NCBI GenBank assembly: GCA_048771875.1
Contig: CM109711.1
Location: 4,239,768-4,303,767 of the forward strand
DNA from: Ctenodactylus gundi
Taxonomy: Eukaryota
Direction of reading: 5' to 3'
DNA length: 64,000 nt
Below are positions 1-30,909 of the stretch, piece by piece. The notes beneath the pieces are model-generated. The model saw nothing but the letters and a program-made list of their open reading frames with translations. It ran no database searches and was not told where the DNA came from. The position numbers and the translations under genes are program-made. How positions within the stretch are numbered: the stretch's first letter is position 1; every line of letters begins with the position of its first letter.

Positions 1-1504
1 TTGCATACCACCAGCTTTGGTTCTTCATCACCTGTGGGATGGGGGATGGGGTGAGGGGTAAACTGCCTTCACCTTCCTTCTGGACGCTCAGTCACCGCAT
101 CCGAGGACGGATGCTGCAATTTCTCCCACTGGAGGAACAACTCTTGCACTTAAGAAATGACACTGAGGACTTCCTGTAGAGCAGGGTCCCCACCACCCCT
201 TCCCCCGACTCCTGACAGAGATCCGCTTCCTCTCTCTGTGTTCCTGTAATGTTCTGACAGGAGGCAGAGCTTCATCCCCTCCTGCTGCTGCTGCTCCCCC
301 TTCAAAGCTCTCCTCCAACGACCTGCTGTGTAAGGAGTGTCCCCCTAACCCTGACCTTGGCAGAATGGTTTTCAACTAACGCGGTCCTTGTGGCAAGGCT
401 GGGACCACTGCTGTAGCACACACCGGAGCAGTTTCCAGGCAGTGGAGGAGACTGGACTCCACCTAGGCGGGTTGGGAGCAACAGAGTGAATCTGGGGTGC
501 CTCTTGTTGATGGTCCCCGTTGTGTCATGCCTGGATACCTCAGGCTTCTCCATGCTGCCACGTGGACTTGCTAGCTTGATCACGGATTGGGATGTGGACC
601 TAACAAGGAAGAGGAGGGACGGAGGATTCGAGAGAGAGGAAAGAGCTAGAAGGAGCACATGAGACAGGACATTGAGACATCAGGGAAATCAGTAAGCTGA
701 GAGTGCAAGCAGAATACAAAACAAAATCAAGCTGTGTGTGTTGGTGTGCATCTGTAATCTCACTACTGGGAAGACAGAGGCAGGACTGCTGTGGGTTCAA
801 GGCCAGCCTGGGCTTCACAGTGAGTTCAGGACCAGCCTGGACTATCTAGGAAAAACCTGTCTCAAAAAAAAAAAAAAGTCAATTGGAATTAGGTAAAAGT
901 TCCATTACCTGTTCAATATCTATCTTGAACATGAGAGAAAAAGGAGAGGAGAGGAGAAATGAGATGAGAGCATCACTGGCTGTTGTCGTGCGTCACCCTG
1001 GGTTCTTGCAGCCAGCAGCTGCACCCTGCTGCTAGTTCACCGCGGAGAATGTCCTTGCTCTCTGAGATGAATCCTCAGCACCAGATGGCGAGCCTGCAGG
1101 GGCACGGGTGGAGCACTGCCTGCCCTGCACTGTACTGCCCTCATTAAGGCCTGATAACTGCTCATTCCAGCCGCTCCCCGGGCTCCATCCTCTCCCCAGG
1201 GAGGCCCCTGCTAAGAAGGAACAGAGAGCTTTCCCCTGAGGGGGCCAACACTAGGAGTCTGGGCCAGTTTTAAGGTTGAAAGGAATTAGTCCTGGCAGAG
1301 GAGCCTTAAAGAGCAGAGTCTGTGACTTCCCTCTGGGTTTTAGCCTGAAGGCACGAACAAGTGTCCCAAGTGGATTACAACCACGACGCCCAAAGTTGCA
1401 AGTGAGAGGAATCATGCGTGTTTACCATTGTCTCTTTAAAGGCCTGAGTCTACACACAGAAGCTGCTGTTCTAACCATTTGAGAGAATAATCTTCCTTTC
1501 CTTA

Positions 1505-1800
1505 AAACTTCAGCTGGAGAGTATCTCAGTGGTTACAGCACTTGACTTGCCTAGGAAGTATAAAGTTGTGGGTCCAGTTCCCCAATGCCACATAATAGCT
1601 GGGTACCTGTGACCCCAGCACTTGAGAGGGTGAGGCACGCGGACTGCCTTGAGATCAAGACCAGCTTGGACTACAGAGAGCCCAGTGGCCCAGGTGTGTA
1701 AACCAGTCCCTGAGAGGCTGAGGCAAGAGAATCACAAGATTGAGCCTCGCCTGGACAACTTAGTGATGCAGTGAGATCCTGTGTCTAAGTCAAAAAAGAA
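1505..1800 (+). mobile_element. Dimeric ID/B1-type SINE
   Basis: tRNA-like head ggctggagagtatctcagtggttacagcacttg, followed by a B1-like ccagcacttgagag..gctgaggcaagagaatcacaag and an A-rich tail. Paralogous copy at 28025-28320. Confidence 0.6.
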
Positions 1801-3194
1801 AGTGGGTCAGAGATAAGGCTGTGTGTCAGGACCGGGGGTTGGACCCACAGTCTCGACTTCCCTCACATATTCCTTTTGAAGCCCCTTGCCCACCAGCCCT
1901 AATTAACTGTTCCGTGTTCCTCAATCGGTTCACTGGAGGGATTGTTCCTGGCAGCGCCCAGGGCATTGCAGTCTGGCCAGCGGAGGCATAATGTCAGGCT
2001 TTGCACAACGCCTGACCATCCCTTGCTGTGAGATGAACAGCAGGACACGGTGACCTGGTGGAGTGATTCCAGGATGGCCTAACCCAGAACTCTCCTCGCG
2101 CTGAGGTCACGTGTGAGACTCTGCGCTCTCCCTGTGGCACGGTGCCTTCTAGGCCTGGCCCACCGCTCCCGTGCCGTGTACCAATAAACCACCAACTCTT
2201 TCCTTGGCTGGTGATACATTCTTTCACCAGCCCACCATTCCTCTACAGGCCATGCCAGTCATAGCAGTTCTCAAATTTAGGATGATCCCCAGAAGTGGAC
2301 CTGTGTCTCTCATGTTCTAGCTTCCCACTTCACTAATGGACTGTTTCTGGGAAGGGATATCTGAGGTTCACGTCCCCCTGCAGCCCCAAGTCTCCCTTCT
2401 CCGAGAGGAAAGGTTTGAAGGACCTGGCAGACAGAATGGATAGAAGTTGCTATGACCATGCACCTCTGTAATCCCAGCACTTCGGTGGCTAAGGCAAGAA
2501 GACTGCCATGAGTTAGAGGCCATCCTCGGCTATGCAGAGAGCTCAAGTCTAGCCTGGCCTACTGTCTAACTCTGTCTCAAGAAAACAGAAAAAGAAGAAA
2601 AGAGAAGAAGTAAAAGGGGAATTGCATGGGGTGGAAGCAAGCACAGTGAGATACTGATTGTGGTAGACTGAATTTTCACCACATAATCAAACTTCACTCC
2701 ATGTTTGGAATTTTCATAATATCAGACAAGGGAAAGATAAAAAAAATTGGCAAGGAAATAGGCACTTGGTACGGGGTCCTGGCAGTGTGAGCCCTTGACA
2801 GAATCTATTTTAGAAGCCGGAAGAGGGCCATGTTTATCTAGGCAGGTGGCACATTTCAGGTGAGAGCCCCTACAGGCCTTGTAGCTGAGGGGGAGCCCGC
2901 TGCAGCCCCATAGACTGTACCCTAGATCTTACTAGCTACGTTTGTCCCTCGAAAGTTCTGGCCCTATTGTTGGCACCAAGTTTATTCTGCCCCTCTGTGA
3001 TTTGATAGTCAGCCCACAGTGGTTCCCACCTTGCCAGCTGTAATCCTTGAGGGAGGGGCAAGATAAGATGTTCCAGACCCTGCCCCACACCTGACCCTAA
3101 GAGGCTGATCATATTTGCTCAGGAGGAGAGGTTCACACGGTGAGTGTGGGAGGTAGGGGGTGGGGGGTTTGGGGGGCAGGGGAGGAAGGGTTTT

Positions 3195-3252
3195 GACCTG
3201 GTATAAATATCTGGGAGTACCTGGGGGGTATTTTTGCATCTGGAAGTGACAG
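3195..3252 (+). promoter_or_regulatory. ZG16: Putative ZG16 copy A core promoter with TATA box and a short non-coding first exon
   Basis: TATAAATA at 3202-3209, with a G-rich tract upstream. GT donor (caggtaagg) at 3253, about 50 nt downstream. The ATG exon at 4157 has a polypyrimidine tract and AG acceptor, which implies an upstream 5' exon. The same arrangement is seen at 29751-29803 in copy B. Confidence 0.45.
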
Positions 3253-4163
3253 GTAAGGCATGATGAAGGATGTCCAGATTAGAGTTAGGGGGCACTGCGT
3301 GTGAGGTGGAAAATATTCCTAGGTTAAGTGGCAGGAGAGCTTCAGGGCCAGGGAGGTGGGGCCCTTGGAGCAGAGCATTTGGGTGCAAGCCTGTGGTTTC
3401 AGCTGAAGGAAAGAGGGCATGAGGGCCTCACAGGAATTAAATGGCTAGTTGAATGTGAGACAGTTATGGCAAACAGACCACGCACTTGGGATCCAGTGTG
3501 TCCAGTGTCGGATTGTCCCAACTCCTTCTGCAACTTTTCAGGCTAGCCAAGCTTACGAGGTGCTGGGGAATAGAACTCAGGGCTGAGTGCTTGCTAGGCA
3601 AGCACTCTAACCATCGTGCCATTCATCCTCTATCTCAGTTAGGCCTGAACTGCTGTGACACTGACGTCAGCACAGCCTCTTCTGTCAGTACCTTCCTTCC
3701 TAAGGCGACACAGAGGCACCGCTACAATGCTCCCTTCTTTCTGATTTGAGACCAGGCGGAAGCTGGGAATTCAGTGGTGCCCTGGGTGCCCACTAGTGAG
3801 ACTAGTCTACTGGCTGCCTTCGTTAGGCGTTCCTCAGGTCCCCTTGCCAGGGTGGAATGGGGTTTGACTCAGCCTCATCTGGACACAGTTGGGATCGGCC
3901 ATCTGGTTTGGGAGGGAAGAGGAGGGTTGTTAACTGCAGCCATACCAGGGACAGCCATAGGGAGTGGGGCCATCAAAGACGGTATCCCGAAGGGACAGAT
4001 CCCAGATAGAGTCTTCTCTGGGCTCAGGACTGGGTGGGCTTGGTGTGAGGTGAAGAACAGAAAGAGCCCAAGTCTAGACTGGGGGACCGGATGGCAGATA
4101 CGTGACCTCCAGAGGGAGGAGGACGAGCTGTCGTTTCTCCTTTGTTCCCACTGCAGCCCCAGC

Positions 4164-4218
4164 ATGCTGACCATCGCCCTCCTCGGCCTTCTCTGCGCCT
4201 CGGCCTCTGCCAGTGCCA
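4164..4218 (+). CDS. ZG16: ZG16 copy A coding exon 1: signal peptide MLTIALLGLLCASASASA, phase-1 GT donor at 4219
   Basis: ATG at 4164 follows the acceptor ttcccactgcag|cc. The translation matches the N-terminus of human and mouse ZG16 (MLTVALLALLCASASG...). Donor is gtaagt. Confidence 0.85.
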
Positions 4219-4373
4219 GTAAGTGAGAAGTCCTGAGCCCGGCGGGGGTCGTGGGAGGGCAGTCCCTGTGCTGCTGTGGCCCAAGCTGTCAGACAGTCTT
4301 CGGATAGAGGGAACTGAGGTGCGGATGGTGGGGGTTTTGGTGGGGCCCTCACAGGGTTTCTCCTTCCCTCCAG

Positions 4374-4506
4374 TTGAGGCCAGGACCTCCTCCTACAACG
4401 GAGAGTATGGAGGTGGTGGAGGATCGAGGTTCTCCCATTCTGGGAACCAGCTGGAAGGCCCCATCACTGCCATCCGTGTGCGAGTCAACAGTTACTACAT
4501 CGTAGG
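4374..4506 (+). CDS. ZG16: ZG16 copy A coding exon 2 (..IEARTSSYNGEYGGGGGSRFSHSGNQLEGPITAIRVRVNSYYIVG)
   Basis: Acceptor ccctccag|tt. Reading frame is continuous with exon 1. Matches human ZG16 residues about 19-62 (SRFSHSGNQL.GPITA.RVRVN.YYIVG). Donor gtaaga at 4507. Confidence 0.88.
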
Positions 4507-4586
4507 GTAAGAGTCCTTTGAGTTTCTGTGGTCTGGGGACACCTGCTGTGGATAGCCCTGATTCACTTTTGACCACATCTGTTTTT

Positions 4587-4758
4587 TTCCCCTATTTTAT
4601 TGATATGTACAAGTGCAGAATTTAAGGTTTACAATGGAGTTGAGCATTTTGTGCACATATGTATCTTGTCAAGGTGACAAGGACTTTCCCGCTCTCCTTT
4701 TGTCCCTCCCTTACCCTCCCTTCCCTCCCTCCATCCCCACTGTCCCCCTCTTTCGCTT
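4587..4758 (-). mobile_element. L1 3'-UTR fragment inserted in ZG16-A intron 2, specific to copy A
   Basis: Flanked by the target-site duplication tgaccacatctgttt at 4572-4586 and 4759-4773. Absent from the orthologous site in copy B (31095-31120). The same L1 3'-end family is seen at 21120-21360, 21940-22110 and 47870-48130. Confidence 0.75.
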
Positions 4759-6310
4759 TGACCACATCTGTTTCAATCAACAAGTCACAGGTGTAATGTG
4801 ACATGGAGAGAAGTTGTTAAAAGGCCAGTATTCAAATTTGTGCTGTTACTGTTCTCGAAAATCCCCAAGGAAACAGCCCCTCTGATTGGGCCTGAAAATG
4901 TTAACCTCAGGGAAATCAGCCTGGGAAGCAGTCCTGTGCAGCACCCATGCCCCCCTTTAACTAAGTCTGTAATAGTTGAACTGTGAAGCTGTGTAGCTAT
5001 TTGTGCAGCTCAAGGTCAAGAATACAGCCTATTGCCAGGACAGGCAAGGAGAGAGGGCCAAAGACAGTGTGTACTGAAGTTTGCTTTGTGTGAAGAGAAA
5101 CTGTTTCAGCAAACTTGTTCTGCAGGCATTTCTATTTGTTACTGTGTTCTATGCTCGTTGGCTAGCAAGTCGACACCCTGTGCAAAGTGTATAGAAGTAT
5201 CCTGCCCCTGAGCTAGAGAGACCCAAGCCTTTTTGGAATTATTCATGCGAAGGTACCCTAGCAAGGTTAATAAATCTTCCTCTCACTTCTGACCTCCAGG
5301 CTCTGAGTCTTGTTACTGCTGGGTTTATCAAATTTCTGTAACATTCCTGGAGGATGGTGTAGTCTTTGCGGGAGCAGTTTTCCAGTTCTGTGACTAAAGC
5401 TTTCCTGAATACAGTAGGGAAGTTTTTGAGGCCCGAGGGGAAGCTGGTCCAGGTTAGCTGTCCTTTTTGTCACTGTGTCTTTTTACTCAAATGCAATCAG
5501 ATGCTGGCTGACCTCTGCCAGACCCAATCAGGAGAAAGCACCTTTCAGATCTAGGCAGGTGAGCATGCAGGAGGGTGCACAGGTTAAGAACAACTGGATG
5601 CATGGCTTCCACTGTCTTTGACCATACGCAGGTCTTGCGCAGGTCCACAGTCATTAGTACGCGGTGCCTTGACTAGGTGCGGTTGGTGCACTAGCTGTGT
5701 TTCAGGCTAGTCCGTCCCCTCATTTTCTCTGGCCTCTGAGGACACAGGATGCTGTCTGTGGTCCACTGGGTTAGTTGTCCCCTTTTGCCAGTCTTACCCT
5801 TCTATCGTGGTCCCAGATTTTAGGGAATCTCTGGAGCACTTGCACTAGGAACAGCTGAGGCACCAGCCATGTGTCAGCCGCAAGGAGGGGTCCATCCTAT
5901 TTCCTGTGGATGGAGCGTCTTTAAAGTTAATACAAGCAGGGCATTTGGGCCAGGGCCCCAAGTGTCTCGTCACTGTGGTGCCCAATTTAGATAACAAGTT
6001 TCTCCCTAAGAGCGAGCCTGGTGCCTCTGGAATTCAGAGGAACCAGTGCCAGACCTGCTATCTTTCTTAGCAGGTGTCATGGCCCCAAAGTGAGGTGGAG
6101 GCTGTCAGTAGTCATGGGGACTGGTCCCACTAGCAGGGGCTGTGAGGGACCTTTTGAGGCCAGGCACCAGCAGTTACTCAAAGGACCACAGAGAAACTCT
6201 CCAGGAGACTAAAGTGGAGAACACGAACCAGTATGCGCTGTCCTCGCATTTCCTTGGGTCTCCTGTGATAGGCTGCGCATTTGCAGCTTGAGGCAAAGGC
6301 AGTTCCAGCC

Positions 6311-7199
6311 TCACAGCTGGCTCCTGGCTGGGCAGCACCAGTTGGGACAGGAGCAAGAGACAGGGAACCATCCCACAGTGGGCACAGTGCCAGTGCCTGC
6401 TGGGCTGTGTGAGCTAGGGCAGGAATGTGAGGTGGGGAGACAGAAGCCATCTGCTCTTTGTTTTTGGACAGTGGGGCCTCTCACTCTGATCTCCAATTCC
6501 AACAAAAACTCGAAGAAAGTGATCTTTTGGGGGAGAGGAGAAGAGTGTGGGAGTATCTCACAGAGGACAGAAAGAAATGGGGGCCATGTCTGGGTGGGTG
6601 GATAATTGACCTGAAGCTGGGCACCTTCCCCACCTCTCGGGTGCAGGCTTTGTGGTTTGAGATGACAGGGAAGGGTATGGACGTGCTCTAAGTTGAACCT
6701 CTGGCTCTGGATCTGGGGAGGTGGCTGAGCAGGGCGCAGGGCCTTGCTCATCTGGTGGGGCATGAGGAATTGCTGCCACTGGCTGCATCGACCTTGGGAT
6801 GGCCAGCAGGGCACACAACAGGGGCTCATCTTCTGGCTCCTGGGCCAGGAAGGTGGGAGGTGGCTTTTGAGGCTTTTGGTGTGTTGTGAGCACTGCCATG
6901 GACCCTAAGGACGCAGGAAACCGCAGCTGGTCAGGTCGGCAAGCAGCCAAAGCATACCAAGAGCCAATGTAAGGAAAGTGAACTGGGTCTCCCTTGCAGC
7001 TCTCCCTTATACGAGCAACCATGGCCAAGTCCAACATTCCTTCAGGTGGCCATTCTGCTTCCAGTGTGGGCCACTCTCCTTCACAAAGGACCTGGTGGCT
7101 CTCTGGCTTCATCCGCACACCATAGTTTGCAGAGTAACCAGCTTTGAAGTGGCTCAGCACAGCCTGTAGTATGTCAGCTTCCCTCTCTCCTACAGCCAA
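6311..7199 (-). mobile_element. Endogenous gammaretrovirus-like gag fragment (MA/p15-like domain), antisense in ZG16-A intron 2, with a frameshift
   Basis: The minus-strand ORF 7199..6558 reads ..CEGEWPTLEAEWPPEGML...DPVHFPYIGSWYALAA...KPQKPPPTFL. From memory, this matches the MLV Gag MA motifs [32 protein letters not shown] and PKPPPPLPP. A second ORF (6829..6311) continues in another frame. The two are joined into a single ORF in copy B. Confidence 0.6.
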
Positions 7200-8689
7200 A
7201 GGAACCCATTTTATGTATGCCTACCATGTGGCCAGTGTCACAAGAAGAGGACAGGTGACCCCTGATGGAGACCACCCGGGCACCTGTCTGGCTGTGCCCC
7301 GCAGGAGCTTAGGTGTGGCTTCTGCATAGGGGGTTTCCTGGAGATGTTCAGCTCGACAGTGACTAATGACCAGACACTAGTCCATTCCCAGCCTAGGCCA
7401 TGTGCCAATCACCATGAAGTTGCAGAACCAGGCCCAATAAGTGCTCATAGCCTGAAGGGGACCTTAAGGATGTGAAGTTGTGAGACCACAACATCAACCA
7501 GACTCACTTAGCAGAACAGTTGCTCATTCACTCACCAGTCCCACAAGAGGTTATCACAAAAATCTCTATTTAAATTCCTCTAAATTAATGCTGCTGTTTA
7601 ACCCAATCTGGTAACCTATAACCTATAACCTGTTAGCTAGACCTGCAATTTCCTGATGACTGGAATCCTCCAGTCCCTCGTGTCCCAAGTTTCCGGTCAT
7701 CGTCTGCCATGGAAGGAGGGGAGTGGATACTTACAATCTCTTTCGAGGGCACTCTAATTGTTTTCTGTGGGGATCAATCTGCAAGGGCTCCTCACTACCC
7801 ACCCCAGGGACAACCTACCTAGTGTGGACATCCACTGTAAGTCTCTGTCTCACTCTGCCAGCCTGTAGTGTCGGTCATTAGCTGTGCAACTGTTTTCATG
7901 TGTCAAGAAAGGGACCCCAGAATTCCATCAGAGGTGCACATTTCCTGGTTCCAGGGACTGCAGTACGCTACAGGGTCAGGAATAGTAACCCTGACCCAAA
8001 TGGGTCCAGCCAGTCTTATTACTGGTGTATCACTGGGGCTTCCAGGAATGTTACAGACATCCAATACCACCAGGAAATATCAAATGAACAGAGGTTAGAT
8101 GAAGATTTATTACGCTAGTATGCCTTTTTCTAGATCATTCCAAAAATGGAGGGCCAGAACTCCAGGGCAGGCTACTTTCACACACTTTGTGGGATCAAGG
8201 GGGAGCCTTGCTGTCCAGCAAGCTGGGGACACGGAGATATCAGCCTGGCAAGTTTGCACAAACAGTTTCGTCTTTACACAAAGCCAGCTGCAGACAGCAC
8301 CCTTCGTCCTTGGCCCTGCAGCACACTCTCTCACTGCCGGCCTAGGGGGCAGGCTCTGTGCTTGTGCTGGAGCTACACTGCCAGGCACACCGCTTGACAC
8401 TTTAACTGTTACAGACTCAGCAGAGGGGCGGAGGGTGAGTGCTTTCTCTTAGGTTGTTTCAGGCCCAGTCAAGAGGGGCTGCTTTCCTGGGAATCTACCA
8501 CGATGTTACAATTCCTGTGCTCCAACACGTGTGACTTGGCAAGTCACGTAGCAAGGAACTTTTAGGGACCGGAAATCTGTGTGTGTCAGCCTCCACCCAA
8601 AGTTTAAAACTCCTTTGTAATATTCCTGTCAGATACCTTTCATGTCTGGTTCCTGTCTCTCTCTCTCTGTCTTCCTTTTGGAGACCAGG

Positions 8690-8865
8690 TATTGCTCTGT
8701 AGCCCAGGCTGGCTTCAAACTCACAACAGTTCTCTGCCTTACCTCCTAAGTGCTGGTATTACTGGCATGCAACTCCACGCCCAGCTTACGTGGTGCTTGG
8801 GAATTGAACCAGGACCTCATGCTTTTTATGCAAGTGCCTTAACCACTGTGCGCCAGCTCTTAGTG
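8690..8865 (-). mobile_element. tRNA-derived SINE (ID/B1-like), antisense
   Basis: RC of the SINE head: ..ttaaccactgtgcgccagctc. Paralogous copy at 35460-35640. Confidence 0.55.
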
Positions 8866-9527
8866 TCGCTATGTATCCTTGCTCATTTCATATAGTTAAA
8901 AATTCTACAATATGAAGAGGCAAAGTGTTTCCTCTGATACGCATTTTGTATCCTGAGACATCACTGCCAAGTCTCTTCTCTTTCCCACATGAGAAACTTG
9001 CAGGTAGTTTGAAAATAGTTTAGCATCAGGCTTGGTAGCACAGGCCTGTAATTCCAGCCCTCTGAGAGGGTTCCAAGTTTAAGACCAGCCTGGACATTTT
9101 AGTAGCTTAGTAAGGCCCTATCTCAAAATAAAAACTAAAAATGGGCAAGGGGCATAGCTTAGTATGAATGTCCTGGACTCAATCCCACTAATTAGTTAAC
9201 TTAAGAAACCAAAACAAAGGAAAAAAACACCCTTCTTGGTTCTTTGAAGTGAGGAATAGGAGCACAGAAGATCTTGGACTCCAAATTCAAGCTCTGACCT
9301 TGGCTTTCCAGGGGACTCTGAGCAATTCCTTTTCCTTTCCTTCTAGGAGGCTATTTGTGGGCAATATGAGGAGTTGATGTTCCCTGGGGGATCGTCTAGG
9401 GCTCACCCAGCTTTCGTATTCCGTGGGACCAGCAGGGGACCTGTCATCTCTGTCCCCATTTTGAGGCCTGGAGGTTCTGGATTCTAACCCTATTGTGTCT
9501 CCCTCCTCCCTCTTCAACCACCCCCAG

Positions 9528-9843
9528 GCTCCAGGTGCGCTATGGAAAGGAGTGGAGTGACTATGTGGGTGGCAAACAGGGTGACCTGGAGGAGATCTAC
9601 CTGCACCCTGGGGAGTCAGTGATCCAGGTGTCCGGCAAGTACAAGAGCTATGTGAAGCAGCTGGTCTTTGTTACGGACAAGGGCCGCTACCTGCCTTTTG
9701 GGAAAGACACCGGCACCAGCTTCAATGCTGCTCCATTGCATCCCGACACTGTCCTCCGATTCATCAGTGGCCGATCTAGTTCCGCCATCAATGCCATTGG
9801 CTTTCACTGGGATAATTACCCCAGTGAGTACAGCAGCTGCTGA
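9528..9843 (+). CDS. ZG16: ZG16 copy A coding exon 3: jacalin-type lectin domain (LQVRYGKEWSDYVGG...HWDNYPSEYSSC*), stop TGA 9841-9843
   Basis: Acceptor cccccag|g. Long near-match to human ZG16 (LQVRYG..WSDYVGG..GDLEEI.LHPGESVIQVSGKYK...VFVTDKGRYL.FGK..GTSFNA.PLHP.TVLRFISGRS). Total CDS is 504 nt, giving 167 aa, the same length as human ZG16. Confidence 0.9.
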
Positions 9844-9921
9844 GACCTGCCTCCTCTATGGCAGGGAGAACATGATTAGCATAAAAACTCCACCATTAGC
9901 TCCTCCCACACAGATGGCTTA

Positions 9922-9927
9922 ATAAAA
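9922..9927 (+). terminator. ZG16: ZG16 copy A polyadenylation signal AATAAA
   Basis: AATAAA lies about 80 nt after the stop codon. Confidence 0.5.
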
Positions 9928-11999
9928 GGGCTTGGCTAAAGCTGGTGTGTATATGGTGTCTTCAGCTGGGATGTGCCTTGTTCTGGCAGGAATGTGCAAA
10001 CCTCATTTCTGGCTCTCTGTTGGCGTAAATCTGAGAGAAGTGGGGGGATAAGGAAGAGAAGTGTTGAGACTCCTGGGCCTCTCCTTATAGTTTATCAAAA
10101 GTATGGCCAAGCATCGTCATGCATGCCTGAATTTGAAGTAATCATGTGTTAATTTGACATTCCCTGACAGATGCAAAAGTTGCTTCTTCTCTTCTAGTCA
10201 CATGATTTTACTGGTGCTGCGAGAACAGGGTTTTCCACACGGGGCCCACGGGGTGTGACAGAGGGGCACCTAACTACATCTGGGAGTGTCAGGGAAGGCT
10301 GTGAGGGGAGCGGTGTGTATGTGTGGATGCAGGTAACAAGCACAAGGCCCCGCTTAAGCAGACACAGGGGTAGACCACCACAGAGCACACGCTTAGTTTA
10401 GCATGTTATAAAGCCCTGCATCTGATCCTTATTAAAAAGGAAAACAAGGAAGAGTGATTAAATACACCTAAAATGCAAAGTACAAAGAGGCCAGGAATGA
10501 AGTCCACCAGGTGTGATGGTACATGGCTCGAACCACAGCAACTCAGGAGGCGGAGGCGGGAGGATTTCAAGTTTTGAAACCAGCCTGGGCAATTTAATGG
10601 ATCCTGTCTCAAAACAAATATTAAGGACTGGAGGAGTGGCTCGGTGGTCAAAGCATTTACTGAGAGGCACAAATTCTTGTGGTCAATTCCCTAAGACTAT
10701 ATAAGCCACATGTGGTGGCACAGGTCTGTGATCCCAGCCAGGAGGCTTGCCTGCACTCAAAGGCTAGATTATCCCACATACTTCAAGACCTTCCTGGGAT
10801 ACAGAGCAAGATCCTGTCAAAAAATAAATAAATAATAAAATAAAATAAACAAAGTTTACAGCAGATTGTAGCCCATGGTAGAGAATTTAGTTAACACGTG
10901 CAGGCCTTTACTTCATTCTCCTTATCCCCAAAACATGCACAAGACTGCAGCCCCCTGAAAAGGCTGAGGTAATGAATGTCATGCTAAACAACTTAAACTT
11001 ACTTTATGGGCTATGGGAAGAACCAAATCAAATTTTACCCTGAAGACTGATGAGACAATATGGAAGCATCATTTTCCTGTTGCTGAGTGGGGAAAGTAGA
11101 TAAGTTCCAACAGGAAGAAGCAAGGAAGTAGCTGGGATATTTGAAGTGTAGACTAGAAATGCTGACTATCTGCACCCAGAAGTGCCAGGGAGTGAGAAGA
11201 GGGACAGTATGGGGCAGTAGCAGAGGACAGATGGTGAGGAACCTGAGGGTGAGTGAAGGAGTGATGGCTAGGAGCACTAACTTGTCTGTAGCTTGGGCAA
11301 CTAGAAACAGAAGGGTATCATGTTCAGAGGTGGGGAATCAGAAGCAAAAATTAGTTCGTAGACTTGCTGAGTGTTGATGTATCTGTGAACATCTTAGTTG
11401 AAGTTGAAATCCTACCAGTGGTGTATCTGAGAATACAGCTTTTATAAAAATGTATCTTTTTTGACAAATACTAATTGTATATATTACGGAGTAGAATGTA
11501 ATGACTGGTATATGTTTACAATGTGGAATACTTAAATAACCCAGCACCTCACATAATTACTTGTGACAAAGACAGTTAACATCCATTCATCTAACAATTC
11601 TTTTCTTTTTGAAAGTCACATTGTGTAGCCCACATTGTTTCTGAAGTCACGAAGTAGCCCATGCTAACCTCAAATTCATGCCAACCCTCCTGCATCAGCC
11701 TCTGGAGTGTCTTTTGGCATTCTGGAAGTACACGATGCATTACTAATGACAGTCACCATTCTGTCAGTAGTTCATGAAGGCTTAGTCCTCCTGTCCAACT
11801 GAACCTGCATATTGTGATCAACATCTTCCTTCGCCTGCCTCAGGTAACCACCATTTCTCTGAATTCCACCTTTTTAGAATCTACATATAAGTGAGATCAT
11901 GCACTATTTGTCTTTCTGTGCCTGGCTTATTTCATTTAAGGAAATATGTTCCCGGTGCATCCATGTTGTTGCAAGTGACAGGCTGTGGAATAAAGCTCT

Positions 12000-15714: not shown

Positions 15715-15965
15715 GGGCTGGAGGAATGGCTCAGCGGTTAAAGTGCTTAGTCAGCAAGCGCTGCTAAGTCAAGTGCTAAGTACCTGAGTTCGATTCCCCT
15801 GCACCACATAAGCTGGGCATGGTGGTGCACACCTATAATCCCAGCACTCGGGAGGCTGAGGCAGGAGGATTGTCGTGAGTCCAAGGCCAGCTTGGGCTCC
15901 ATAGTGAGTTCAGGACCAGCCTGGACTACACAGCGAGACCCTGTCTCAAAAATAAAATAAAATAA
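15715..15965 (+). mobile_element. ID/B1-type SINE
   Basis: ggctggaggaatggctcagcggttaaagtgcttag..cgattcccctgcaccac..cccagcactcgggaggctgaggcaggaggattg, with an (AAAAT)n tail. Confidence 0.6.
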
Positions 15966-16399
15966 AATTGATAAACCTGTAGCCAAACTCACCAAAAGAA
16001 GGGAAGAAAATATCCACATCTATGCAATTAGAAATTTAAAAAGTGGGGCTGGAGGAGCTGCTCAGTGGTTAGAGTGCTTGCATAGGAAGCTCAGGGCTCT
16101 GGGTTTGATTCCCTGGTACTGCATAACCAAGGTGTGGTGGCACTTGTCTGTAGTTCAGGGCCTGAGGCAGGAGGATAGCCATGTGTTTGAGGCCAGCTGG
16201 GGTTACATGGGAGCTCAAAACTAGCCTGGACTAATGAATGAGACCTTAAGCTGGAGCATGGTGGCACAAGTCAGCAGCCCAGCATGTGGAAGGCTAAGGC
16301 GGAAGGATTGGTGGAAGTTCAAGGCTAACTTGACCTACATAGTGAGTTCAGGACCAGTACAGACAGAACAGTAGGAGCCTGTATGAAAAAATATAATTT

Positions 16400-17460
16400 A
16401 ATAAACACAGACAAAAGTAAAAACTGAGCTGAGGTTGTAGCTCAGTGTGAAGACCAGATATTGGATCTTCATGACTATGGGGGAAAAAAATGAAAAAAGT
16501 GAAATCACAACAGACACTACTGAAATCCATAGGATTACCCAACAGTATTTTGAAAACCTATATTCCAAAAATTCAAGATATGAATAAATTCCTAGATGTT
16601 TATAATATACCAAAATTGAACCAAGAATATATAAAAACTCTGAATACAGCAAGAGCCAGGAATAAAATTCAGACAATAATAAAGGGTCTACCAACAACGA
16701 AAAGGCCAGGACCTGAAGATTCATGGCAGACTTTATCAGATGGTAAAGGAGGAGTTAGAGCCACTGCCCCTTAAGTTCTTCCATTAAACTGCTAGAGAGG
16801 GAACACTGCTAAATTCCTTCCTAGAAGTAAGTATCACCTTGATCCCCAAACAAGATAAACAGCCAACCTGGAACAAACATGAAAAACCAATTTCCTTTAT
16901 GAATATTGATACAAAAAGATCTTAATAAGATCTTTGCAAACAAAATGGCAACAAATTATTAAACAGATAATACAGAATGGTCAACTTGGCTTCATCCTGG
17001 GGTTGAAAGGATGGTTCAACACATGTAGCTTGTAACTAACTCAATTAATGTAATACACCATATAAACAAAAACAAGGACAAAAATCACATGATGATCTCA
17101 ACAGATGCAGAAAAAGCCTTTGGCAAAATCCAATATCCCTTCCTAATCAGAACTCTGATGAAAATAAGTACCGAAGGATATTACCTCAAGCTGATAAAAG
17201 CAATCTATGAGAATCCAACTCTGAACCTTATTCTATGTGGGAAATACTGAAAGCATTTCTCCTAAAATCAGGAATACGACAATGGTGTCCCCTCTCACCA
17301 ATCCTTTTGAACGTAATGCTCTAAGCCACAACAGATCAGGCTCAAAAAGGAGTCATCCATGCTAAAAGTTCTACACAGCCAAGCCGAAACTGCTCTTCCT
17401 AGCATAAAGAGGTAACAACCAAATTCGCCAGAGGCCAGATTCACTTGGCATGATAACAAA
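16400..17460 (+). mobile_element. L1 ORF2 (5' part) fragment
   Basis: ORF 16490..16774 and neighbouring frames resemble the start of L1 ORF2 (..NQEYIKTLNTA...KGLPTKKSPGPD-like). Confidence 0.6.
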
Positions 17461-17699
17461 GGTAACCTCAAGTAACTCGATGCTGTCCTCCTACTCCCTC
17501 TCCCTGTAACACCTCCCGAGGTGAGAAGATCACTTTGGAGAAGGCCGATCCCCTCCTGTCTCCAACCTGCCTGTGTTATAACACCAACGCCTTCTGCTCA
17601 GCCTCCCGGGGCATTCACTCTAAGCTACGGCCTGAAGTGTTGCCCGACGCTAGAACAGCGTCAGCCACTCAAGACCTTTACACTGTACTTCTGTCCTTT

Positions 17700-18637
17700 G
17701 GCAGGTAGAACGTAATGTCCAACCGGGGCCCGACCCGGAGCTCCGAAGGACCGACCATCCTCACCGGAGGGACACGCGTGGACTTCGCAGCTGAACCCTC
17801 AAGGGATCGGCGCGAGCGTGACCAGGCAACCCGTAAGGCAGGACTGCAACGCTCGCTCCGAACAGCTGGCTGCCAAGTTACGAAGCGAGGTTGGCGGCGC
17901 TGGCGTCCTCGGCGCGGACACGAGACACGCGGGGCCACACGGCGGCTCTGGCTCGGTGAGACGTGCGCGACGCGTGACGGCACAGTGACTGCGCCCAGCC
18001 GGGGCGGGCGGCTCCGGTCCACGGAACCGACCCGACGTGGCAGCACGGCTGCTGCGTGACCACCTCGGCCTCAGGCGCAAAAAACTTCTGAAAAGATCAG
18101 CAGCCGTTCAGAGCAATCCGCTTCCTGATACTTTCAGCATTAAAGAGGCGAAAAGCGTACTCAGCGCTGGGAAGTTTTTGGATCCAGCGACCAAGCGGCT
18201 CCGACCACTGTCTCCTTGCTTCGTACCAAGATCGGAGCTGCAGGGGTCGCGGCGACTCTGCACGCACGGAAATGTACGCGCGGGAACCCCAGAGTCTGGA
18301 CACGAAAGGAGCCCGGCGGGCACGGACGTTTCCCGCAACACAACGCCTCGAGCTTCCGGTGTCCGCCGGTGCCTAAGCTCGACCTCAGCGGCTCCGCGGC
18401 CAACGCCCTTGCGCCTGCGTCCTCGGCCGGGGGAAGCTTTAACGTGACGGACGGGATGTGAGCTTTAGAACGCGGGCTGGGGAAGAGCTACGATCAGGGG
18501 CTTCCGGCGATGCAGAGTCGTGATTGGTGAATCCTGGGAGGGGGGCGGGGCGCCGGGCAATTCGAATTAGAGAGGCGGGTCCGAAGCCGTGAGAGGAATG
18601 GACGCTGGGGCTTCGGTCCCGTCGTTCCCGACGGGAG
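17700..18637 (+). promoter_or_regulatory. Orphan duplicate of the KIF22 CpG-island promoter (copy A)
   Basis: Essentially identical to 40126-41062, with identical ORF-track translations across about 1 kb. Carries CCAAT (ATTGG at 18523-18527), a GC box (18541-18550) and a CHR-like TTCGAA (18561-18566) upstream of the duplicated ATG. Confidence 0.7.
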
Positions 18638-18656
18638 ATGGCTGCGGCCACCTCAG
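18638..18656 (+). pseudogene. Orphan duplicate of KIF22 coding exon 1 (ATGGCTGCGGCCACCTCAG|gtacgt) with no downstream KIF22 exons
   Basis: Identical to the genuine exon 1 at 41063-41081, including the GT donor. Downstream homology ends at about 18850, where L1 and SINE sequence begins. Confidence 0.65.
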
Positions 18657-18815
18657 GTACGTGGGTCGTGCGAGGGTGAGGCGCGCACCAAAATCTGAAG
18701 CGGATTGAGTTGACAGTACAGTCAGGGAAATAAAGGACTGTTTCCTCAAAGCCCTTGCTGTGGAACTGAATGCGATTTAGTCAGAAAGACGGTTAACACC
18801 TTCAAAATCCTGTAT

Positions 18816-19021: not shown

Positions 19022-19260
19022 GTGGTGAAGGAATGGCTCAGCGATTAAAGCACTTGCCCAGCAAGCGCTAAGTCAGACGCTAAGTACCCGAGTTTGATTC
19101 CCCAGCACCACACAAGCTGGGCGTGGTGACCCACGCCTGTAATTCCAGCACTATGGAGGCTGAGACAGGAGAATTGAATTGAGTCCAGTGTCAGCCTGGG
19201 CTCCATAGTGAGTTCAGGACCAGCCTGGGCTACAGAGCGGGGACCTGTCTTTAAAAGAAA
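19022..19260 (+). mobile_element. ID/B1-type SINE directly after block II, copy A
   Basis: ggtgaaggaatggctcagcgattaaagcac..gattccccagcaccac..cagcactatggaggctgagacagg. Confidence 0.6.
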
Positions 19261-21119
19261 AAGATGTGGTAAGGATTGCTGGCAGTCCTGGGCTCAAGAC
19301 CAGCCTGGGAAACAGCGAAATCCTGTCTCATAAATAAATAAATAAATGTAAGAGATATGGAAGAAATAAAGTGAAAAGATGGACTTTGGGGAGAGGGAAA
19401 ATGACAGTGGGGTGGTGAGAGGGTAAGAAGGGGAAAGGGATGCATTATGTAAATAAAAGAACTAATAAAAATTAAGAGTAACAAATGCCTTGGGGGAAAA
19501 AAGATCCCCTTCTTGATATCATTGGGTGGCCAGGGAATATGAACGGTGTGTAACTTTAAAATGTCATTGTGCTCTGTGGGTCACTTTGGGCCTGAGTTCT
19601 GACAAATACACATAAACATATACACTGTAATTGTAACTAGCAAAGCCTGCTTTGGTGGACCCTTCCTCTCTCTTTAACCTTCAGGCAGGAGGTATGGATT
19701 TAGACTAAGTGCTTAGACTAGGGCCTCCTAAAGTCTACCTACCCTCCTAGCAAAGTAAGACTGGGAAGGAGGAGATAGGGAAACTCACCATTTGTTGTTG
19801 GTTTGTTTTGTTTTCATCTCCTTTATTAACTTAAAACTTTGAGAAAGATCCCTGGGGAGCCATGCAGGTAAGTACGCTAATCACTCAGCCGAGTGTCTGT
19901 ATTACAAGGATCATCAGCCCTAACTTTACCTAATCTGTCTCCTTCCCTTCTAGACCCTAGACACTGTCACACAAGTGAAGTGATTTTTAGGGACCGTCAT
20001 TTTCCAGCTAGCACACCCTCCAGACCACCCAGGAGCGATGCCTAAAATGTTTTCAAATCGCCAATCACCTTGCAGAGGCCTTGCTGTCCACTCTGTGATA
20101 AGATCCTATCCCCCTAAGTAGGTGCTATTGCCCCCCACTGTGACCCCAGAACAGCAGTTAGAGTGTCCAGTAAGCATAAGGCCCTGGTTTGATTCCCTAG
20201 CACCACCTAAGAAGACTGTGGTGCTGTACTTCTATAATCTCCGTACTTGGGAGACTGAGGCAGGAGGATTGCCCTGCATTAGAGGCCAGTTTGGGCTACA
20301 TAATGGGTACACATCCACCAGGACTATATATGCAGAGAAACTGAGTCTCAAAAATACATAAAATAAAAACAAATATAATGAAGTTCCTATGCTGGGCCTA
20401 GTGGCACACGATTCTTAGCACTCTGGAAGGCTGAGGCAGGAACATTGCAAATTTGAGGACAGCCTGGGAAACTTAGAAACATAGTGAGGTCCTTTCTCCA
20501 AATAAGAAACAATAACAGCCTGGGATTTATCTGAGTGAGAAGGTGCTGGATTCAGTCCCTAATAGGGCACAACAATAAAACCCCTGATGTTTCCAACCCT
20601 ACCTTCATGTGTGGCACCCGGCCACATGTCTCACATGGGTGCACAGCCAATCAGAACTTTAAAAAAAATTTAAAAGACCTTTTGCTGGTAGAAACCTCTC
20701 GCTGTCTACGCAGAACTACTCTCCGGAGTGCACGTTCACTGCACAGACTCACTCCAACAACGCTGCTGAGTGCTTTTCAGCCATTTGCAGGGGAGGGTGC
20801 TTAGAAAGAGCTGCGACCTTGTCCACTTGGTCTGAGCAGCTTCTTGTTTGGGTCAACAAGGACTAGGGACAGAGCTTTGACTATCCAGGTGGCTCTGCCA
20901 GTTTTGGCTCGGGTCATTAAGGACTCAGAAAGAGCTGGCCTCTACAATTCTTTGTTCTGCTCATCAAGGATCTAGAAAAGAGCTGTAATACTTCTGGTAA
21001 CTCCCATGGCAACCTTTGGTTAGAACACCCAGGACTGGAAAGACACACCACCCTTCAGGCCCACCATGTCAGTAACAAGAGAAGTGACTTGAGTTAAGGT
21101 CCCCATCTCCCTCCCTTTT

Positions 21120-24500: not shown

Positions 24501-27500
24501 CTTCCTATCCCAGACCTATCAGATGTTCTAGGCCAATGTGGGCTTTCCTCTTCTGCAGCTGCCTGCGGCTACCAGCTGTTTGCAGCCGACCTGTAGCAGC
24601 TTCCTGGCATGTGGGGGTTTTCGCTTCGATTTCGATGTTCCTTGAGGATTTCTGACCTTCGCCTGGCCTCCTTTCAGTTGTTGGAGTGCTTCTCTCTGTC
24701 CTGGCTAGATTGAACACACATTTTATGACTAAATTTTTGACTTTTTAAGTAGTTTGTTGAAGAGACATTGTGCCACTCTGTTACTTGGCTGCCTTCTTGA
24801 CCTGGAAGTCTGCCCCCTCCTTTTTAAGACTGAGCCCAGAGCCCTAACACTGAGCTCCATTCCCCAGCTTACTTGATATTTGTTTTGAGAGAGGGTCTCA
24901 CCAATTTGCTAAATTGCCCAACCTGGGGTTGAGCTTAAAATCCTCCTGCTTTGGCCTCACCAGAGAGCTAGGATTACAGGTGTGCGCCACCATCACCAGC
25001 TCCCCATATTCTCTTTGGGGGACCTCCTAAGATCTGTTACAGTGACAAAAAGACCAACGTAATTTTTTCCTCAGTTTCTGCTCGCCATTTAGCATCTGTG
25101 TGAGACAGTTTCCTCTGCTTATCTCACTGGACCACTAACTCTGCCTAATGGAATTTAGTACTGTCTGATTCTAAAATTGTATCTAAAAGCCAGTTGAGAT
25201 ATTTAAATGAAAGCTGGATGTGGTGGAGCAGTCCTGTCATTTCAGCACTTGAAAGGCTGAGGCAGGAGGATTGCTGTGAGTCCAAGACCAGTCTGGGCTC
25301 CATAGTGAGTTCAGGACCAGCCTGGAGTACAGAGCGAGGCCCTGTCTCAAAAAAAAAAAAAAAAGATTAAATGATATTTTTGGTAATCTTGTCTTTTGAC
25401 AGGGTGGAAAAAGAAATCTCCACCATGGGGTTTCCGTTTGCATGGACTCTGGGAAGAGCTTTGCCTACCCAACAGTGAGAGTTGCTGTCAGGGCCACTGA
25501 AGAGAAAAAAAAGAGAAGAATCCAGGAATGGAAGAGACTTCACACATCTCCTGCCGTGACTGCCCATTTTGACTCATACTGTTGCCCAAATCCATTCTCT
25601 ACTTTATCCAAAAGCAGAGAGTAAACTTTGTAAAATGTAAATGCAATCCTGGACCGTCCTCCTCATCTTTGACCCACTTAAAACCTTCTAGGACTTCCCT
25701 CAAGAATAACAACTAAAATCTTGACCTGGCCTTCCAGACCAGGCGCCATCTGCCCACTCCATTGCCCCTGCCCAAACCTCACCTCGCATTGACTTCCCTT
25801 ACGTACCACCAGCCACCCTGCCCACCTTGCTGTTTGAAAAGTCATCAAACATACTTTCTCCTCAGGGGATTTCGTGTTTGTTGTTCTCTGTGCCTGTACT
25901 CAGATGTCTGTATTTCTCTCCATTAATTCAGGTCTGTAAATCCAAGCACCCTGGGAGGCTGAGGCAAGAGGATCACAACTTTGAATCTGTGCTGGGCAAT
26001 TACAATTCAGTTAGAGTCTGTCTCAAAAAAAGAAAAGAAAAAGAAAGAAAGAAAGAGAGAAAGAAAGACAGACAGACTGACCATCAGGGATGCAGCATTC
26101 AGTATGAAGGCTCTGGGCTCAATCCCCAATGCCACAGGAAAAAAAAAATACTAGCTAAGTGGAGAAGTCTCCCAGTAAGGAGAGCAGCTTCCCACCTCCC
26201 CGCGGGCTCTCCTGCTTCACTGTTCACGGCACAACCCTCCAGCTTCGTGGTATGTGGCGTGTGATCTCACATGACAACTGTGCTGACTCTGCCCAGAGTC
26301 TGAGCTTCCTGAGGTGGGCAGCGGGCTTCCCACTCACTTCACGTCCTGGGCCTCTGGAATGGGGCTCAGTGTAGAGATTGACACGTGAGGAGTGAATCTC
26401 TACCCAGGGGCAGAGGAGGCAGCAAGAGGTCAGCTGCCAGTTGCCCTGCAGTAGCGGAAAACGTGGGAAGGGCTTTGGTTCTTCATCTGCCGTGGGACGG
26501 GGGATGGGGAGAGGTGTGAACTGCCTTCACCTTCCTTCTGGACGCTCAGTTACCTCATCTGAGGAGAGGTACTGCAATTTCTCCCACTGGAGGAACAACT
26601 CTTACACTTAAGAAATGACACTGAGGACTTCCTGTAGAGCAGGGTCCCCACCACCCCTTCCCCCCACTCTTGACAGAGATCTGCTTCCTCCGCTTCCTCT
26701 CTCTGTGTTCCTGTAATGTTCTGACAGGAGGCAGAGCTTCATCCCCTCCTGCTGCTGCTGCTCCCCCTTTCAAAGCTCTCCTCCAACCTGCTGTGTAAGG
26801 AGTGTCCCCCTAACCCTGACCTTGGCAAAATGGTTTTCAACTAACGCGGTCCTTGTGGCAAGGCTGGGGACCACTGCTGTAGTGCACACCGGAGCAGTTT
26901 CCAGGCAGTGGAGGAGACTGGACTCCACCTAGGCGGGTTGGGAGCAACAGAGTGAATCTGGGGTGCCTCTTGTTGATGGTCCCCATTGTGTCATGCCTGG
27001 ATACCTCAGGCTTCTCCATGCTGCCACGTGGACTTGCTGGCTTGATCACAGACTGGGATGTGGACGTGACAAGGAAGAGGAGGGACGGAGGATTCGAGAG
27101 AGAGGAAAGAGCTAGAAGGAGCACAGGGGAAAGATGCAGAGGGAGAAGGGGAAAGACGTGGGAAGAAGAGACCGAAACACCAGAGCAAGACATTAAGAGT
27201 TCAGGAAAAGCAACAATCAGAAGGTAAGCAACATGCAAAACAAAACCATGCTGTCTGTGGTGGTGCGCATCTGTAATCCCAGCACTGGGAAGGCAGAGAC
27301 AAGAGGACTGCTGTGAGGTCAAGGCCAGCCTGGGCTACACAGTGAGCTCAGGACCAGCCTGGAGTATACAGCAAGACCTAGTCTCAAAAGAAAAAATAAT
27401 TGGATTGGACTTAGGTAAGGGTTAAATTACCTGTTCAGTGCCTATCGAACTTGAGAAAAAATGGAACCAAGGAAGAAGAAACGAGGACATCATTGGCTGT

Positions 27501-29744: not shown

Positions 29745-29801
29745 ACCTGGTATAAATATCTGGAAGTACCTGGGGGCTTATTTTGCATCTGAAAGTGCCA
29801 G
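29745..29801 (+). promoter_or_regulatory. Putative ZG16 copy B core promoter with TATA box and a short non-coding first exon
   Basis: TATAAATA at 29751-29758 and donor g|gtaagg at 29802. This is the paralogous counterpart of 3195-3252. Confidence 0.4.
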
Positions 29802-30702
29802 GTAAGGTGTGACAAGGATGTCCTGATCAGAGTTAGGGGCTACCAGGTGTGAGGTGGAGAAGAAGATTCCTAGATTGAGTGGCAGGAGAGCTTCAGGGAC
29901 AGGGAGGCGGGGCCCCTGGAGCTGAGCATTTAGATGCCAAGATGTCTGGTTTCATGGGGGCATGAGGGGCTCTCCAGAATTAAATGGCTAGGTATGGGTG
30001 AAATGGTTATGACCAAAAAAACAAAAAACAACAGGCATCTGGAATCCAGTGTCGGATTGTCCCAACTCCTTCTGCAACTTTTCAGGCTAGCCAAGCTCAC
30101 GTGGTGCTAGGGAATAGAACTCACGGCTGAGTGCTTGCAAGCACTCTAACCATCATGCCATTCATCCTCTATCTCAGGCCTGAACTGTTGTGACACTGAC
30201 ATCAGCACAGCCTCTTCTGTCACTACCTTCCTTCCTAAGGCGACCCAGAGGCACCGCTACAATGCTCCCTTTCTGGTTTGAGACCAGGCGGAAGCTGGGA
30301 ATTTAATGGTGCCCTGGGTGCCCACTAGTGAGGCTAGTCTACTGGCTGCCTTTGTTAGGTGTTCCTCAGGTCCCCTTGCCAGGGTAGGATGGGGTTTGAC
30401 TCAGCCTCACCCGGATCCAGTTGGGATCGGCCATCTGGTTTGGGGGGGGGGGGGGAAGAGGAGGGTTGTTAACTGCAGCCATACCAGGGACAGCCATAGG
30501 GAGCGGGGCCATCAAAGACGGTGTCCCGAAGGGACAGATCCCAGATGGAGTCTTCTCTGAGCTCAGGACTGGGTGGGCTCGGTGTGAGGTGAAGAACAGA
30601 AAGAGCCCGAGTCTAGACTGGGGGACCGGATGGCCGATACATGACCTCCAGAGGGAGGAGGACGAGCTGTCGTTTCTCCTTTGTTCCCACTGCAGCCCCA
30701 GC

Positions 30703-30757
30703 ATGCTGACCATCGCCCTCCTCGGCCTTCTCTGCGCCTCGGCCTCTGCCAGTGCCA
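30703..30757 (+). CDS. ZG16 paralog (copy B) coding exon 1, signal peptide identical to copy A
   Basis: ATG at 30703. Translation MLTIALLGLLCASASASA. Donor gtaagt at 30758. Confidence 0.85.
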
Positions 30758-30909
30758 GTAAGTGAGAAGTCCTGAGCCCGGCGGGGGTCGTGGGAGGGCA
30801 GTCCCTGTGCTGCTGTGGCCCAAGCTGTCAGACATTCGGATGGAGGGAACTGAGGTGCGGATGGTGGGGGTTTTGGTGGGGTCCTCACAGGGTTTCTCCT
30901 TCCCTCCAG

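Follow-up and report, generated by a model that had tools for sequence, protein, structure and literature searches.

This text concerns a stretch of 64,000 nucleotides from the gundi Ctenodactylus gundi, called the window here in its whole length, and an open reading frame (ORF) on its minus strand (6558-7199, 213 aa, TTG start), which lies antisense within intron 2 of a gene resembling the lectin gene ZG16. Judged by its sequence, the N-terminal part of this ORF is a remnant of the matrix (MA) portion of gag from a class I (gammaretrovirus-like) endogenous retrovirus (ERV). We consider it highly probable that the ORF belongs to one old, defective and dead element, that this element was inserted at a single site, antisense to ZG16, in gundis (Ctenodactylidae), once their lineage had split from the Hystricognathi and before ZG16 was duplicated, and that the likeness of the ORF in the two paralogs stems from gene conversion. 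The relic is a real but ordinary ERV fossil with an unusual architecture, in which the two long terminal repeats (LTRs) are inverted relative to each other.

The matrix remnant and its provirus

The host gene, copy A of a duplicated ZG16-like gene, spans 4164-9843 on the plus strand, with exons at 4164-4218, 4374-4506 and 9528-9843 and canonical GT-AG introns. Its spliced product is a jacalin lectin of 167 aa, and the exon translation is 100 % identical to the Ctenodactylus gundi ZG16-like protein KAM5227605.1. Against the PDB, the spliced exons match ZG16 (7o3i) at E 5.5e-81 and ZG16B (3aqg) at E 2.4e-17; that is, three coding exons specify a jacalin lectin nearer to ZG16 than to ZG16B. The antisense location within ZG16 intron 2 (4507-9527), which an initial annotation of the window had proposed for the ORF, is thereby borne out. 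A unit of ~10 kb (14-10132) is duplicated at 26472-36892, and three ZG16-like proteins are annotated on one gundi scaffold. The second unit carries the entire ERV complex as copy B (31190-35262, minus strand).

Both minus-strand frames described in that annotation exist with the positions, lengths and peptide given there, namely the 213-aa ORF, of which only about aa 1-125 (7199-6825) form a decayed Gag MA domain, and an alternative frame of 172 aa (6311-6829). The similarity to MA of murine leukaemia virus (MLV), which that annotation had proposed, held up against the Pfam profile Gag_MA (PF01140, gathering cutoff 30 bits): the copy A ORF scores 33.0 bits (E 5.9e-8) and the 193-aa ORF of copy B (33049-33630, minus strand; recovered with both Pfam and PDB phmmer) scores 33.9 bits (E 3.2e-8), and the match covers profile positions 22-95 of 113. 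In phmmer searches of the PDB, the best match of the ORF is a mouse Gag MA-like domain (1uhu, E 1.1e-7), and MLV p15 (1mn8) is found at E 1.5e-6. A word-indexed protein search returned zero matches. When 1.84 billion representatives were searched exhaustively with HMMER, 142 ERV Gag relatives emerged at E<=1e-3, the best at E 4e-17 and 40-47 % identity, and none above 47 % identity. The short relatives are MA fragments, and the long ones combine MA, Gag_p30, zf-CCHC, RVP, RVT_1, RNase H and MLVIN_C, the architecture of class I (gamma-like) ERVs. The MA profile match, the PDB matches and the 142 Gag relatives together uphold the earlier assignment to a class I ERV.

The MA-like segment ends within the ORF. 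Neither the tail of the 213-aa ORF nor any part of the 172-aa ORF has detectable Gag homology among PDB entries and 169 ERV Gag proteins, and the 172-aa ORF, which lacks homology to Gag or other proteins, is probably fortuitous. The initial annotation had let gag continue in this second frame to 6311; the frame is there, and recognisable gag within it is not. A resemblance of its peptide GGEGAQLQ..WPPF to the capsid (CA) N-terminus of MLV, GGNGQLQYWPF, was rejected, as it found no support in the PDB or among the 169 ERV Gag proteins. The two frames are indeed fused into one 193-aa ORF in copy B, as had been noted, by a 7-bp indel, GCAGGGC (6729-6735), which is present in copy A and absent from copy B; beyond this indel, Gag homology is absent from the frames of both copies.

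With MLV p15 and the Gag_MA family, the ORF shares the hallmark motifs EWPTx..WPPEG and FPYIxSW and a proline-rich tail, and like them it directly follows a long leader that separates it from the primer-binding site (PBS). It departs from gammaretroviral MA in its score of 33 bits, a Met-Gly start that is out of frame, PPPTF in place of PPPY, and the lack of p12, CA and nucleocapsid (NC) after it. Its closest relatives are unnamed class I ERV lineages in host-derived contigs of JGI metagenomes (33000355xx; L001 and L002 with protein P0003, L003-L006 with P0001), which share 39-47 % aa identity with the gundi MA. These elements run from gag to pol in normal order, whereas the gundi element is without CA and NC, has a truncated reverse transcriptase (RT) gene and carries its second LTR inverted. 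The samples concerned (JGI 3300035504/08/09/18) evidently hold mammalian host DNA carrying gag-pol. The bat Hipposideros larvatus has an annotated full-length relative, P0104, which is more distant (E 1.3e-4).

The contigs L001-L006, which encode the closest MA relatives, were used to locate LTR, PBS and leader by DNA homology; L001 and L002 are ~70-78 % identical to the gundi ERV in patches of LTR R/U5, PBS, leader, MA and RT. The remnant proves larger than the ORF alone, extending over 3.7 kb (4844-8516). In minus-strand order it comprises a first LTR (LTR-a), the PBS, a leader of ~820 nt, gag MA, a stretch of ~640 nt without recognisable gag, a protease (PR) fragment, an RT fragment and the inverted second LTR (LTR-b). 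LTR-a, delimited by DNA homology and alignment, occupies 8049-8516 on the minus strand (U3-R-U5 with TG..CA ends, AATAAA at 8111-8106); the LTR proper is 8049-8510, from TGTAAC to TGTAACA, and the outer 6 nt, AGGAAT, are extra. In blastn against L001 and L002, 8149-8101 aligns with their R region including AATAAA, 8057-7907 with the U5 end, PBS and leader start, and 7434-7346 with their leader; the gundi untranslated leader accordingly spans 7210-8026 (minus strand). All of L002-L006 contain the PBS of the family, TGGAGGCCCCAGCGAGAT, with gag some 690-720 nt downstream of it. Where L002 has this site in the alignment, the gundi element reads TGGAAGCCCCAGTGATAC (8027-8044, minus strand), a decayed PBS with 14 matches in 18 positions; copy B reads TGGTGGCCTGAGCAAGAT (34477-34460), likewise 14/18, with other positions decayed. 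A scan of the window with ~21 PBS sequences, made blind to the relatives, did not rise above background.

The initial annotation had expected the 5' LTR and leader at about 7200-7860. The leader is found there and the LTR is not; TG..CA ends, AATAAA and a decayed PBS do exist, at 8027-8510 instead of 7200-7900. The same source had suggested that the LTR might drive antisense transcription within ZG16. LTR-a (8049-8510) is antisense to ZG16 and keeps AATAAA and recognisable R and U5, and it could on these grounds be named a candidate promoter. However, the region for which the role was proposed (7200-7860) is not LTR, LTR-a has diverged by ~30 % between the paralogs, the U5 of copy B carries a short interspersed element (SINE), and the TATA-like element of LTR-b (TATAGAAG) reads TGTGAAAG in LTR-a in the alignment, so that a promoter function would seem quite improbable.

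Downstream of MA, tblastn with the full-length Gag-Pol relative P0108 identified PR aa 639-667 at 6054-5968 (E 1e-3) and RT aa 816-911 at 5608-5326 (E 6e-3 and 2e-4), on the minus strand, in Gag-Pol order and in both copies. The PR remnant (5968-6054) is C-terminal. The RT remnant (5347-5650), also found by blastn to L001, contains 2 stops and 2 frameshifts and ends with ..DYTILQ before the YxDD box. The motifs LLGRNLLSKLG (in PR), AQDLRMVK, LDLKGAFS, IAFE and LTWTSFPSGLKNFPTVF are still recognisable. With frameshift-stitched peptides, Pfam gives RVT_1 at E 1e-4 (22.5 bits) and RVP at E 0.026, both below cutoffs, and phmmer against 169 ERV proteins matches RT at E 3e-6 and PR at E 5e-3. Domains of gag, pro and pol therefore lie in proviral order on a single strand in both copies. 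Much of the provirus is missing. A Pfam scan of the stop-masked minus frames of 2500-9500 recovered Gag_MA alone, without Gag_p30, zf-CCHC, TLV_coat or other env; p12, CA and NC homology was undetected in every frame of 6060-6720 against the 169 ERV Gag proteins; and ~700 nt of gag-pro are lacking relative to L001. The remnant ends within RT and has no env, the place of a polypurine tract is taken by just a purine-rich hexamer with AGGAA beside the outer end of LTR-a, and an Rfam scan of the intron returned zero families.

This proviral context also bears on the idea that the ORF is open by chance and its MA similarity spurious. The modest Pfam score speaks for it and nothing else does; the score exceeds the gathering cutoff, the homologues number 142 with a best E of 4e-17, and leader, PBS, LTR, PR and RT follow on the same strand in proviral order. 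Chance can practically be dismissed.

The insertion site can be read from the flanks. Host sequence left of 4844 and right of 8516 is contiguous in Heterocephalus and Fukomys, which thus present the empty site. The left gundi flank ends with …AAATTTGTGC, the right flank begins with ATTCCT, followed by GTGC and TCCAACACGTG…, and the mole-rat sequence reads …ACGTTTGTGTCCGCCAGCACGTG…. GTGC occurs twice in the gundi, on either side of the ERV, and once in the outgroups, which show a single GTG(T) at the place of the right copy; by flank alignment, the copies at 4840-4843 and 8517-8520 are a candidate target-site duplication (TSD), and 4 bp is also the length of the MLV duplication. Copy B has the same outer junctions, GTGC/TGTTAC.. 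and ..ACAATTCCT/GTGC. The ZG16 gene spans 1.6 kb in the naked mole-rat, 1.4 kb in Fukomys and 1.2 kb in the guinea pig, where intron 2 measures ~530 bp; in all three, intron 2 is far below the size of the element. MA was not found at the mole-rat ZG16 locus, and the MA ORF is absent from the Hystricognathi ZG16 loci examined. Gundis and Hystricognathi separated ~45-50 Ma ago. Because copies A and B have the LTR/flank and RT/LTR junctions in common, and these at baseline divergence, the ERV is older than the ZG16 duplication, in line with the initial annotation. Copy B shows changes of its own: LTR-a carries a SINE in its U5, LTR-b is partly deleted, and poly-T/SINE sequence is inserted past the RT junction.

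Paralog divergence and coding potential

The divergence of the two copies is strongly uneven. Kimura two-parameter (K2P) distances amount to 0.30-0.32 for the LTRs, 0.27 for the intron flank and 0.22 for the 5' part of the leader, compared with 0.043 for an RT/PR block (5385-5984) and 0.009 for a block of 1.2 kb containing gag and leader (6627-7826), which is 99.1 % identical to copy B 33065-34257. The latter block holds 11 substitutions, of which 4 fall in its ORF part (573 nt) and 7 in its leader part (627 nt), plus the 7-bp indel; the 155 shared codons differ by 2 nonsynonymous changes (V3L, S136L) and 1 synonymous change. Across the duplicated unit, blocks of 97-99.5 % identity (200-590, 1131-2320, 3684-4476, 5385-5984, 6627-7826 and 9432-9831) are set in a background of 75-85 %, and this mosaic spans exons and non-coding DNA alike. 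The block 1131-2320 sits 2-3 kb upstream of ZG16.

Since near-identity ignores the boundary between coding and non-coding DNA within a background that is ~30 % diverged, we infer that the mosaic would be caused by recent interlocus gene conversion and not by purifying selection on the ORF. The block 6627-7826 is read as a conversion tract, and the ORF would look conserved in both paralogs because conversion homogenised it together with the leader. The conservation claimed in the initial annotation thus holds as near-identity, and not as constraint, as the 99 % block covers the leader equally. Near-identical tracts of 0.4-1.2 kb in a 20-30 % diverged background resemble interlocus conversion between tandem paralogs, and they suggest that the ZG16 duplicates have undergone it repeatedly, non-coding DNA included.

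The reading frame itself bears the marks of decay. All ERV relatives begin with MG..., and the ancestral gag start, an ATG-GGT recognised from the sequence and from these N-termini, is still present at 7204-7209 on the minus strand. Read from 7209, it is shifted by +1 from the MA ORF and gives MGSFGCRREGS before a stop after 11 codons, so that no Met-Gly myristoylation signal is in frame with the MA domain. In the frame of the MA ORF itself, a TAG lies upstream at 7223-7221, and the first ATG is codon 30, within the domain. The Gag_MA score is 33 bits, well under the 50-90 bits of the ERV relatives scanned, and the late motif PPPY has decayed to PPPTF. With ATG-GGT outside the MA frame, CA and NC lost, and RT both disrupted and truncated, the ERV is, as far as its sequence can tell, a relic without coding function.

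A different account would have the MA fragment domesticated, that is, co-opted as an MA-only gene with the leader as 5' untranslated region, expressed in antisense and held by purifying selection in both paralogs. For this account, one can point to the 1.2-kb block with 99 % identity between the copies, to the retained MA hallmark motifs, to an ORF open for 155-213 codons as against 4 RT disruptions in ~115 codons, and to a precedent in the mouse, where an MA-like domain occurs in a cDNA (PDB 1uhu). The mouse sequence, RIKEN cDNA 3110009E22, has an MA-only retroviral domain in a host transcript, and this domain is listed among protein domains derived from transposable elements (PMC2203978). 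The gundi ORF shares ~35 % identity with 1uhu, is not its ortholog and, unlike it, has lost a usable start codon. Domestication is further opposed by the out-of-frame ATG-GGT and the first in-frame ATG inside the domain, and by the low Pfam score relative to the relatives. The leader is conserved as well as the ORF, with 2 nonsynonymous changes against 1 synonymous change in the latter, and the C-termini of the two copies differ through the frameshift. An identical or near-identical protein was not found among 15 billion sequences, and the closest relative shares 47 %. Domestication would on this balance be very improbable, and we judge in the same way the broader proposition that selection keeps MA ORF and leader block, be it as an N-terminally remodelled, co-opted MA-only protein or as an antisense regulatory RNA of ZG16.

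Several observations weigh against our reading of a dead, singly inserted and conversion-homogenised ERV. MA has suffered 1 disruption in ~155 codons and RT 4 (2 stops and 2 frameshifts) in ~115 codons, a contrast with P~0.03 under equal decay; this is a rough, post hoc Poisson estimate and subject to ascertainment bias, the region having been picked for being an ORF. The case for conversion draws on the divergence mosaic of just two compared copies, and the ORF or the LTRs may be transcribed. At the insertion site, the 6 extra nt ATTCCT (the reverse complement of AGGAAT) stand between the right LTR end and GTGC; the TSD is thus imperfectly placed, and single integration is a candidate model. 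Finally, the family PBS is putatively complementary to the 3' terminus of tRNA-Thr(UGU); the tRNA sequence used for this assignment folds in ARAGORN as tRNA-Thr(TGT), which confirms nothing beyond folding.

The inverted repeat architecture

LTR-b is a full second LTR (4844-5343, plus strand; AATAAA at 5269-5274), located by alignment and blastn and inverted relative to LTR-a. Its termini are TGTTAC...GTAACA, and over 442 columns of a global alignment it is 69 % identical to LTR-a (K2P 0.40). The R-U5-PBS segment of L002 that matches LTR-a also matches the plus strand of the window at 5268-5353. No LTR-sized direct repeat was found in 4500-8300, and in place of two TG..CA LTRs in direct orientation with a flanking TSD, the element has inverted LTRs. 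Each of them continues inward with TTCC and the start of a PBS; after LTR-b, alignment places the TTCC spacer and TGGAGG, with which the PBS begins, at 5344-5353 on the plus strand. A start of LTR-b at 4792, where a blast match to the mole-rat ends, was ruled out, as that end is due to a mole-rat SINE; the true start is 4844.

Directly after the spacer and PBS start of LTR-b, the plus strand continues with RT sequence in reverse complement. CTGGAGG (5347-5353), which reads CCTCCAG on the RT strand, forms a microhomology of 7 nt at which the two sequences are joined. On the minus strand, RT reads ...KDYTILQ (…ACCATCCTCCAG) and is followed by GAATGTTACAG…. At the equivalent site, L001 reads …TILQ/HVDD…; as L001 continues into HVDD where the gundi RT homology stops at CCTCCAG, RT was broken exactly before the YxDD box. 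The residues CYRN after ILQ, considered as a mutated YVDD box, were ruled out as such, being inverted U5 sequence. The junction of RT and LTR-b is identical in copy B (AACATTCCTGGAGGATGGTG, 31576-31595).

We infer that this architecture arose before integration, from an aberrant viral DNA formed by reverse transcription or end joining. In the mechanism that we propose, plus-strand strong-stop DNA (U3-R-U5 with ~6 nt of PBS) would switch through the CTGGAGG/CCTCCAG microhomology onto plus-sense RT sequence, and the switched strand would then copy back through PR, gag, leader, PBS and LTR to the end of U3. Copying would stop within the polypurine primer, after a few of its bases, and AGGAAT could be explained in this way. 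The product would have U3 attachment sites on both ends and could enter the genome in a single integration, with GTGC as the candidate 4-bp duplication. An aberrant DNA formed before integration would be the simplest origin because both outer ends are U3 termini at one target site and LTR-b has a spacer and PBS start of the 5'-LTR type. It is tentatively possible, though still doubtful, that the architecture is a germ-line fossil of such an aberrant reverse-transcription product, which carried U3 on both sides and was integrated nonetheless.

For HIV-1, defective proviruses have been documented to arise by aberrant plus-strand (second) transfer (PMC12657518). As in the gundi, a strong-stop junction at the PBS/U5 edge is joined there to an internal viral site, and the product is integrated but defective. 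The HIV-1 cases are deletions or insertions by tRNA read-through, in direct orientation, and inversions are unmentioned (PMC12657518), whereas the gundi segment is inverted and has U3 at both outer ends.

The inverted LTRs might alternatively derive from two opposed proviruses of the same family followed by a deletion, or from a fold-back of a normal provirus after its integration. The K2P distance of 0.40 (69 % identity) between LTR-a and LTR-b exceeds the 0.30-0.32 between LTR orthologs of copies A and B, which fits different elements, and the right junction with its 6 extra nt is not a clean LTR end with TSD. Replication-based rearrangements of genomes, too, typically leave junctions at microhomology, which speaks for this alternative. 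On the other hand, the outer ends are LTR termini, the host flanks are contiguous in two outgroups and GTGC occurs there once; two insertions would thus need to have landed within the same few nucleotides, with deletions of exact extent. The TTCC and PBS start after LTR-b also fit the context of a 5' LTR, which counts against this alternative. Both origins are disfavoured because the host flanks are contiguous, and we regard them as unlikely. A nested insertion, an inversion between LTRs and an in-place inversion of one LTR were rejected by reasoning, as they fail to give LTR termini abutting contiguous flanks.

Neighbouring sequences and implications

Several features of the window lie outside the ERV or accompany it. 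A further duplicated segment (16488-18701 versus 38901-41126, 90 % identity) has an offset of ~22.4 kb, not ~26.5 kb, and a repeat family of ~250 bp occurs in both orientations (15715-15970, 19026-19261 and 43307-43560); indels or rearrangements must accordingly be present inside the duplication unit. To the right of the ERV, copy A has a B1/Alu-like SINE (8677-8790), which stands beside a (CT)n microsatellite and is absent in the outgroups. In copy B, a different B1/Alu-like SINE occupies the U5 of LTR-a (34540-34790), and the poly-T/SINE sequence extends from 31596 onward. Intron 2 of ZG16 in Heterocephalus glaber has a tRNA-derived SINE of its own (L007 10457-10567) with an AAGTCA(T/C)AGG duplication, ~75 bp from the site of the gundi ERV.

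In the host flank left of LTR-b, outside the ERV, the peptide KFEYWPFNNFSPCHI is encoded at ~4780-4800 (minus strand) and in copy B at ~31130 (minus strand). It superficially resembles the gammaretroviral CA N-terminus, QYWPFSSSDLYNW; the likeness was not significant in any search and is probably due to chance. Upstream of ZG16, at 1013-1215 on the plus strand, two tblastn matches (E 0.74 each) to RT and integrase of the bat protein P0104 keep the order of the protein, and this segment may be another, more decayed ERV fragment.

At face value, a conserved retroviral gene appeared to be nested antisense in a lectin gene of mucosal defence; the analysis shows an ordinary dead ERV. The case advises caution, as identity between tandem paralogs is by itself no proof of constraint. 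Were the MA ORF under selection, it would rank among the rare domestications of MA, and the mouse protein of 1uhu, itself poorly understood, would be its only parallel. The inverted LTRs and the 7-nt microhomology before YxDD are a small curiosity and, if they arose before integration, would be a germ-line record of aberrant plus-strand transfer. For the gundi, the ERV provides a dated marker between the split from the Hystricognathi and the duplication of ZG16, and the mosaic of the copies points to a ZG16 cluster in which gene conversion would be ongoing.

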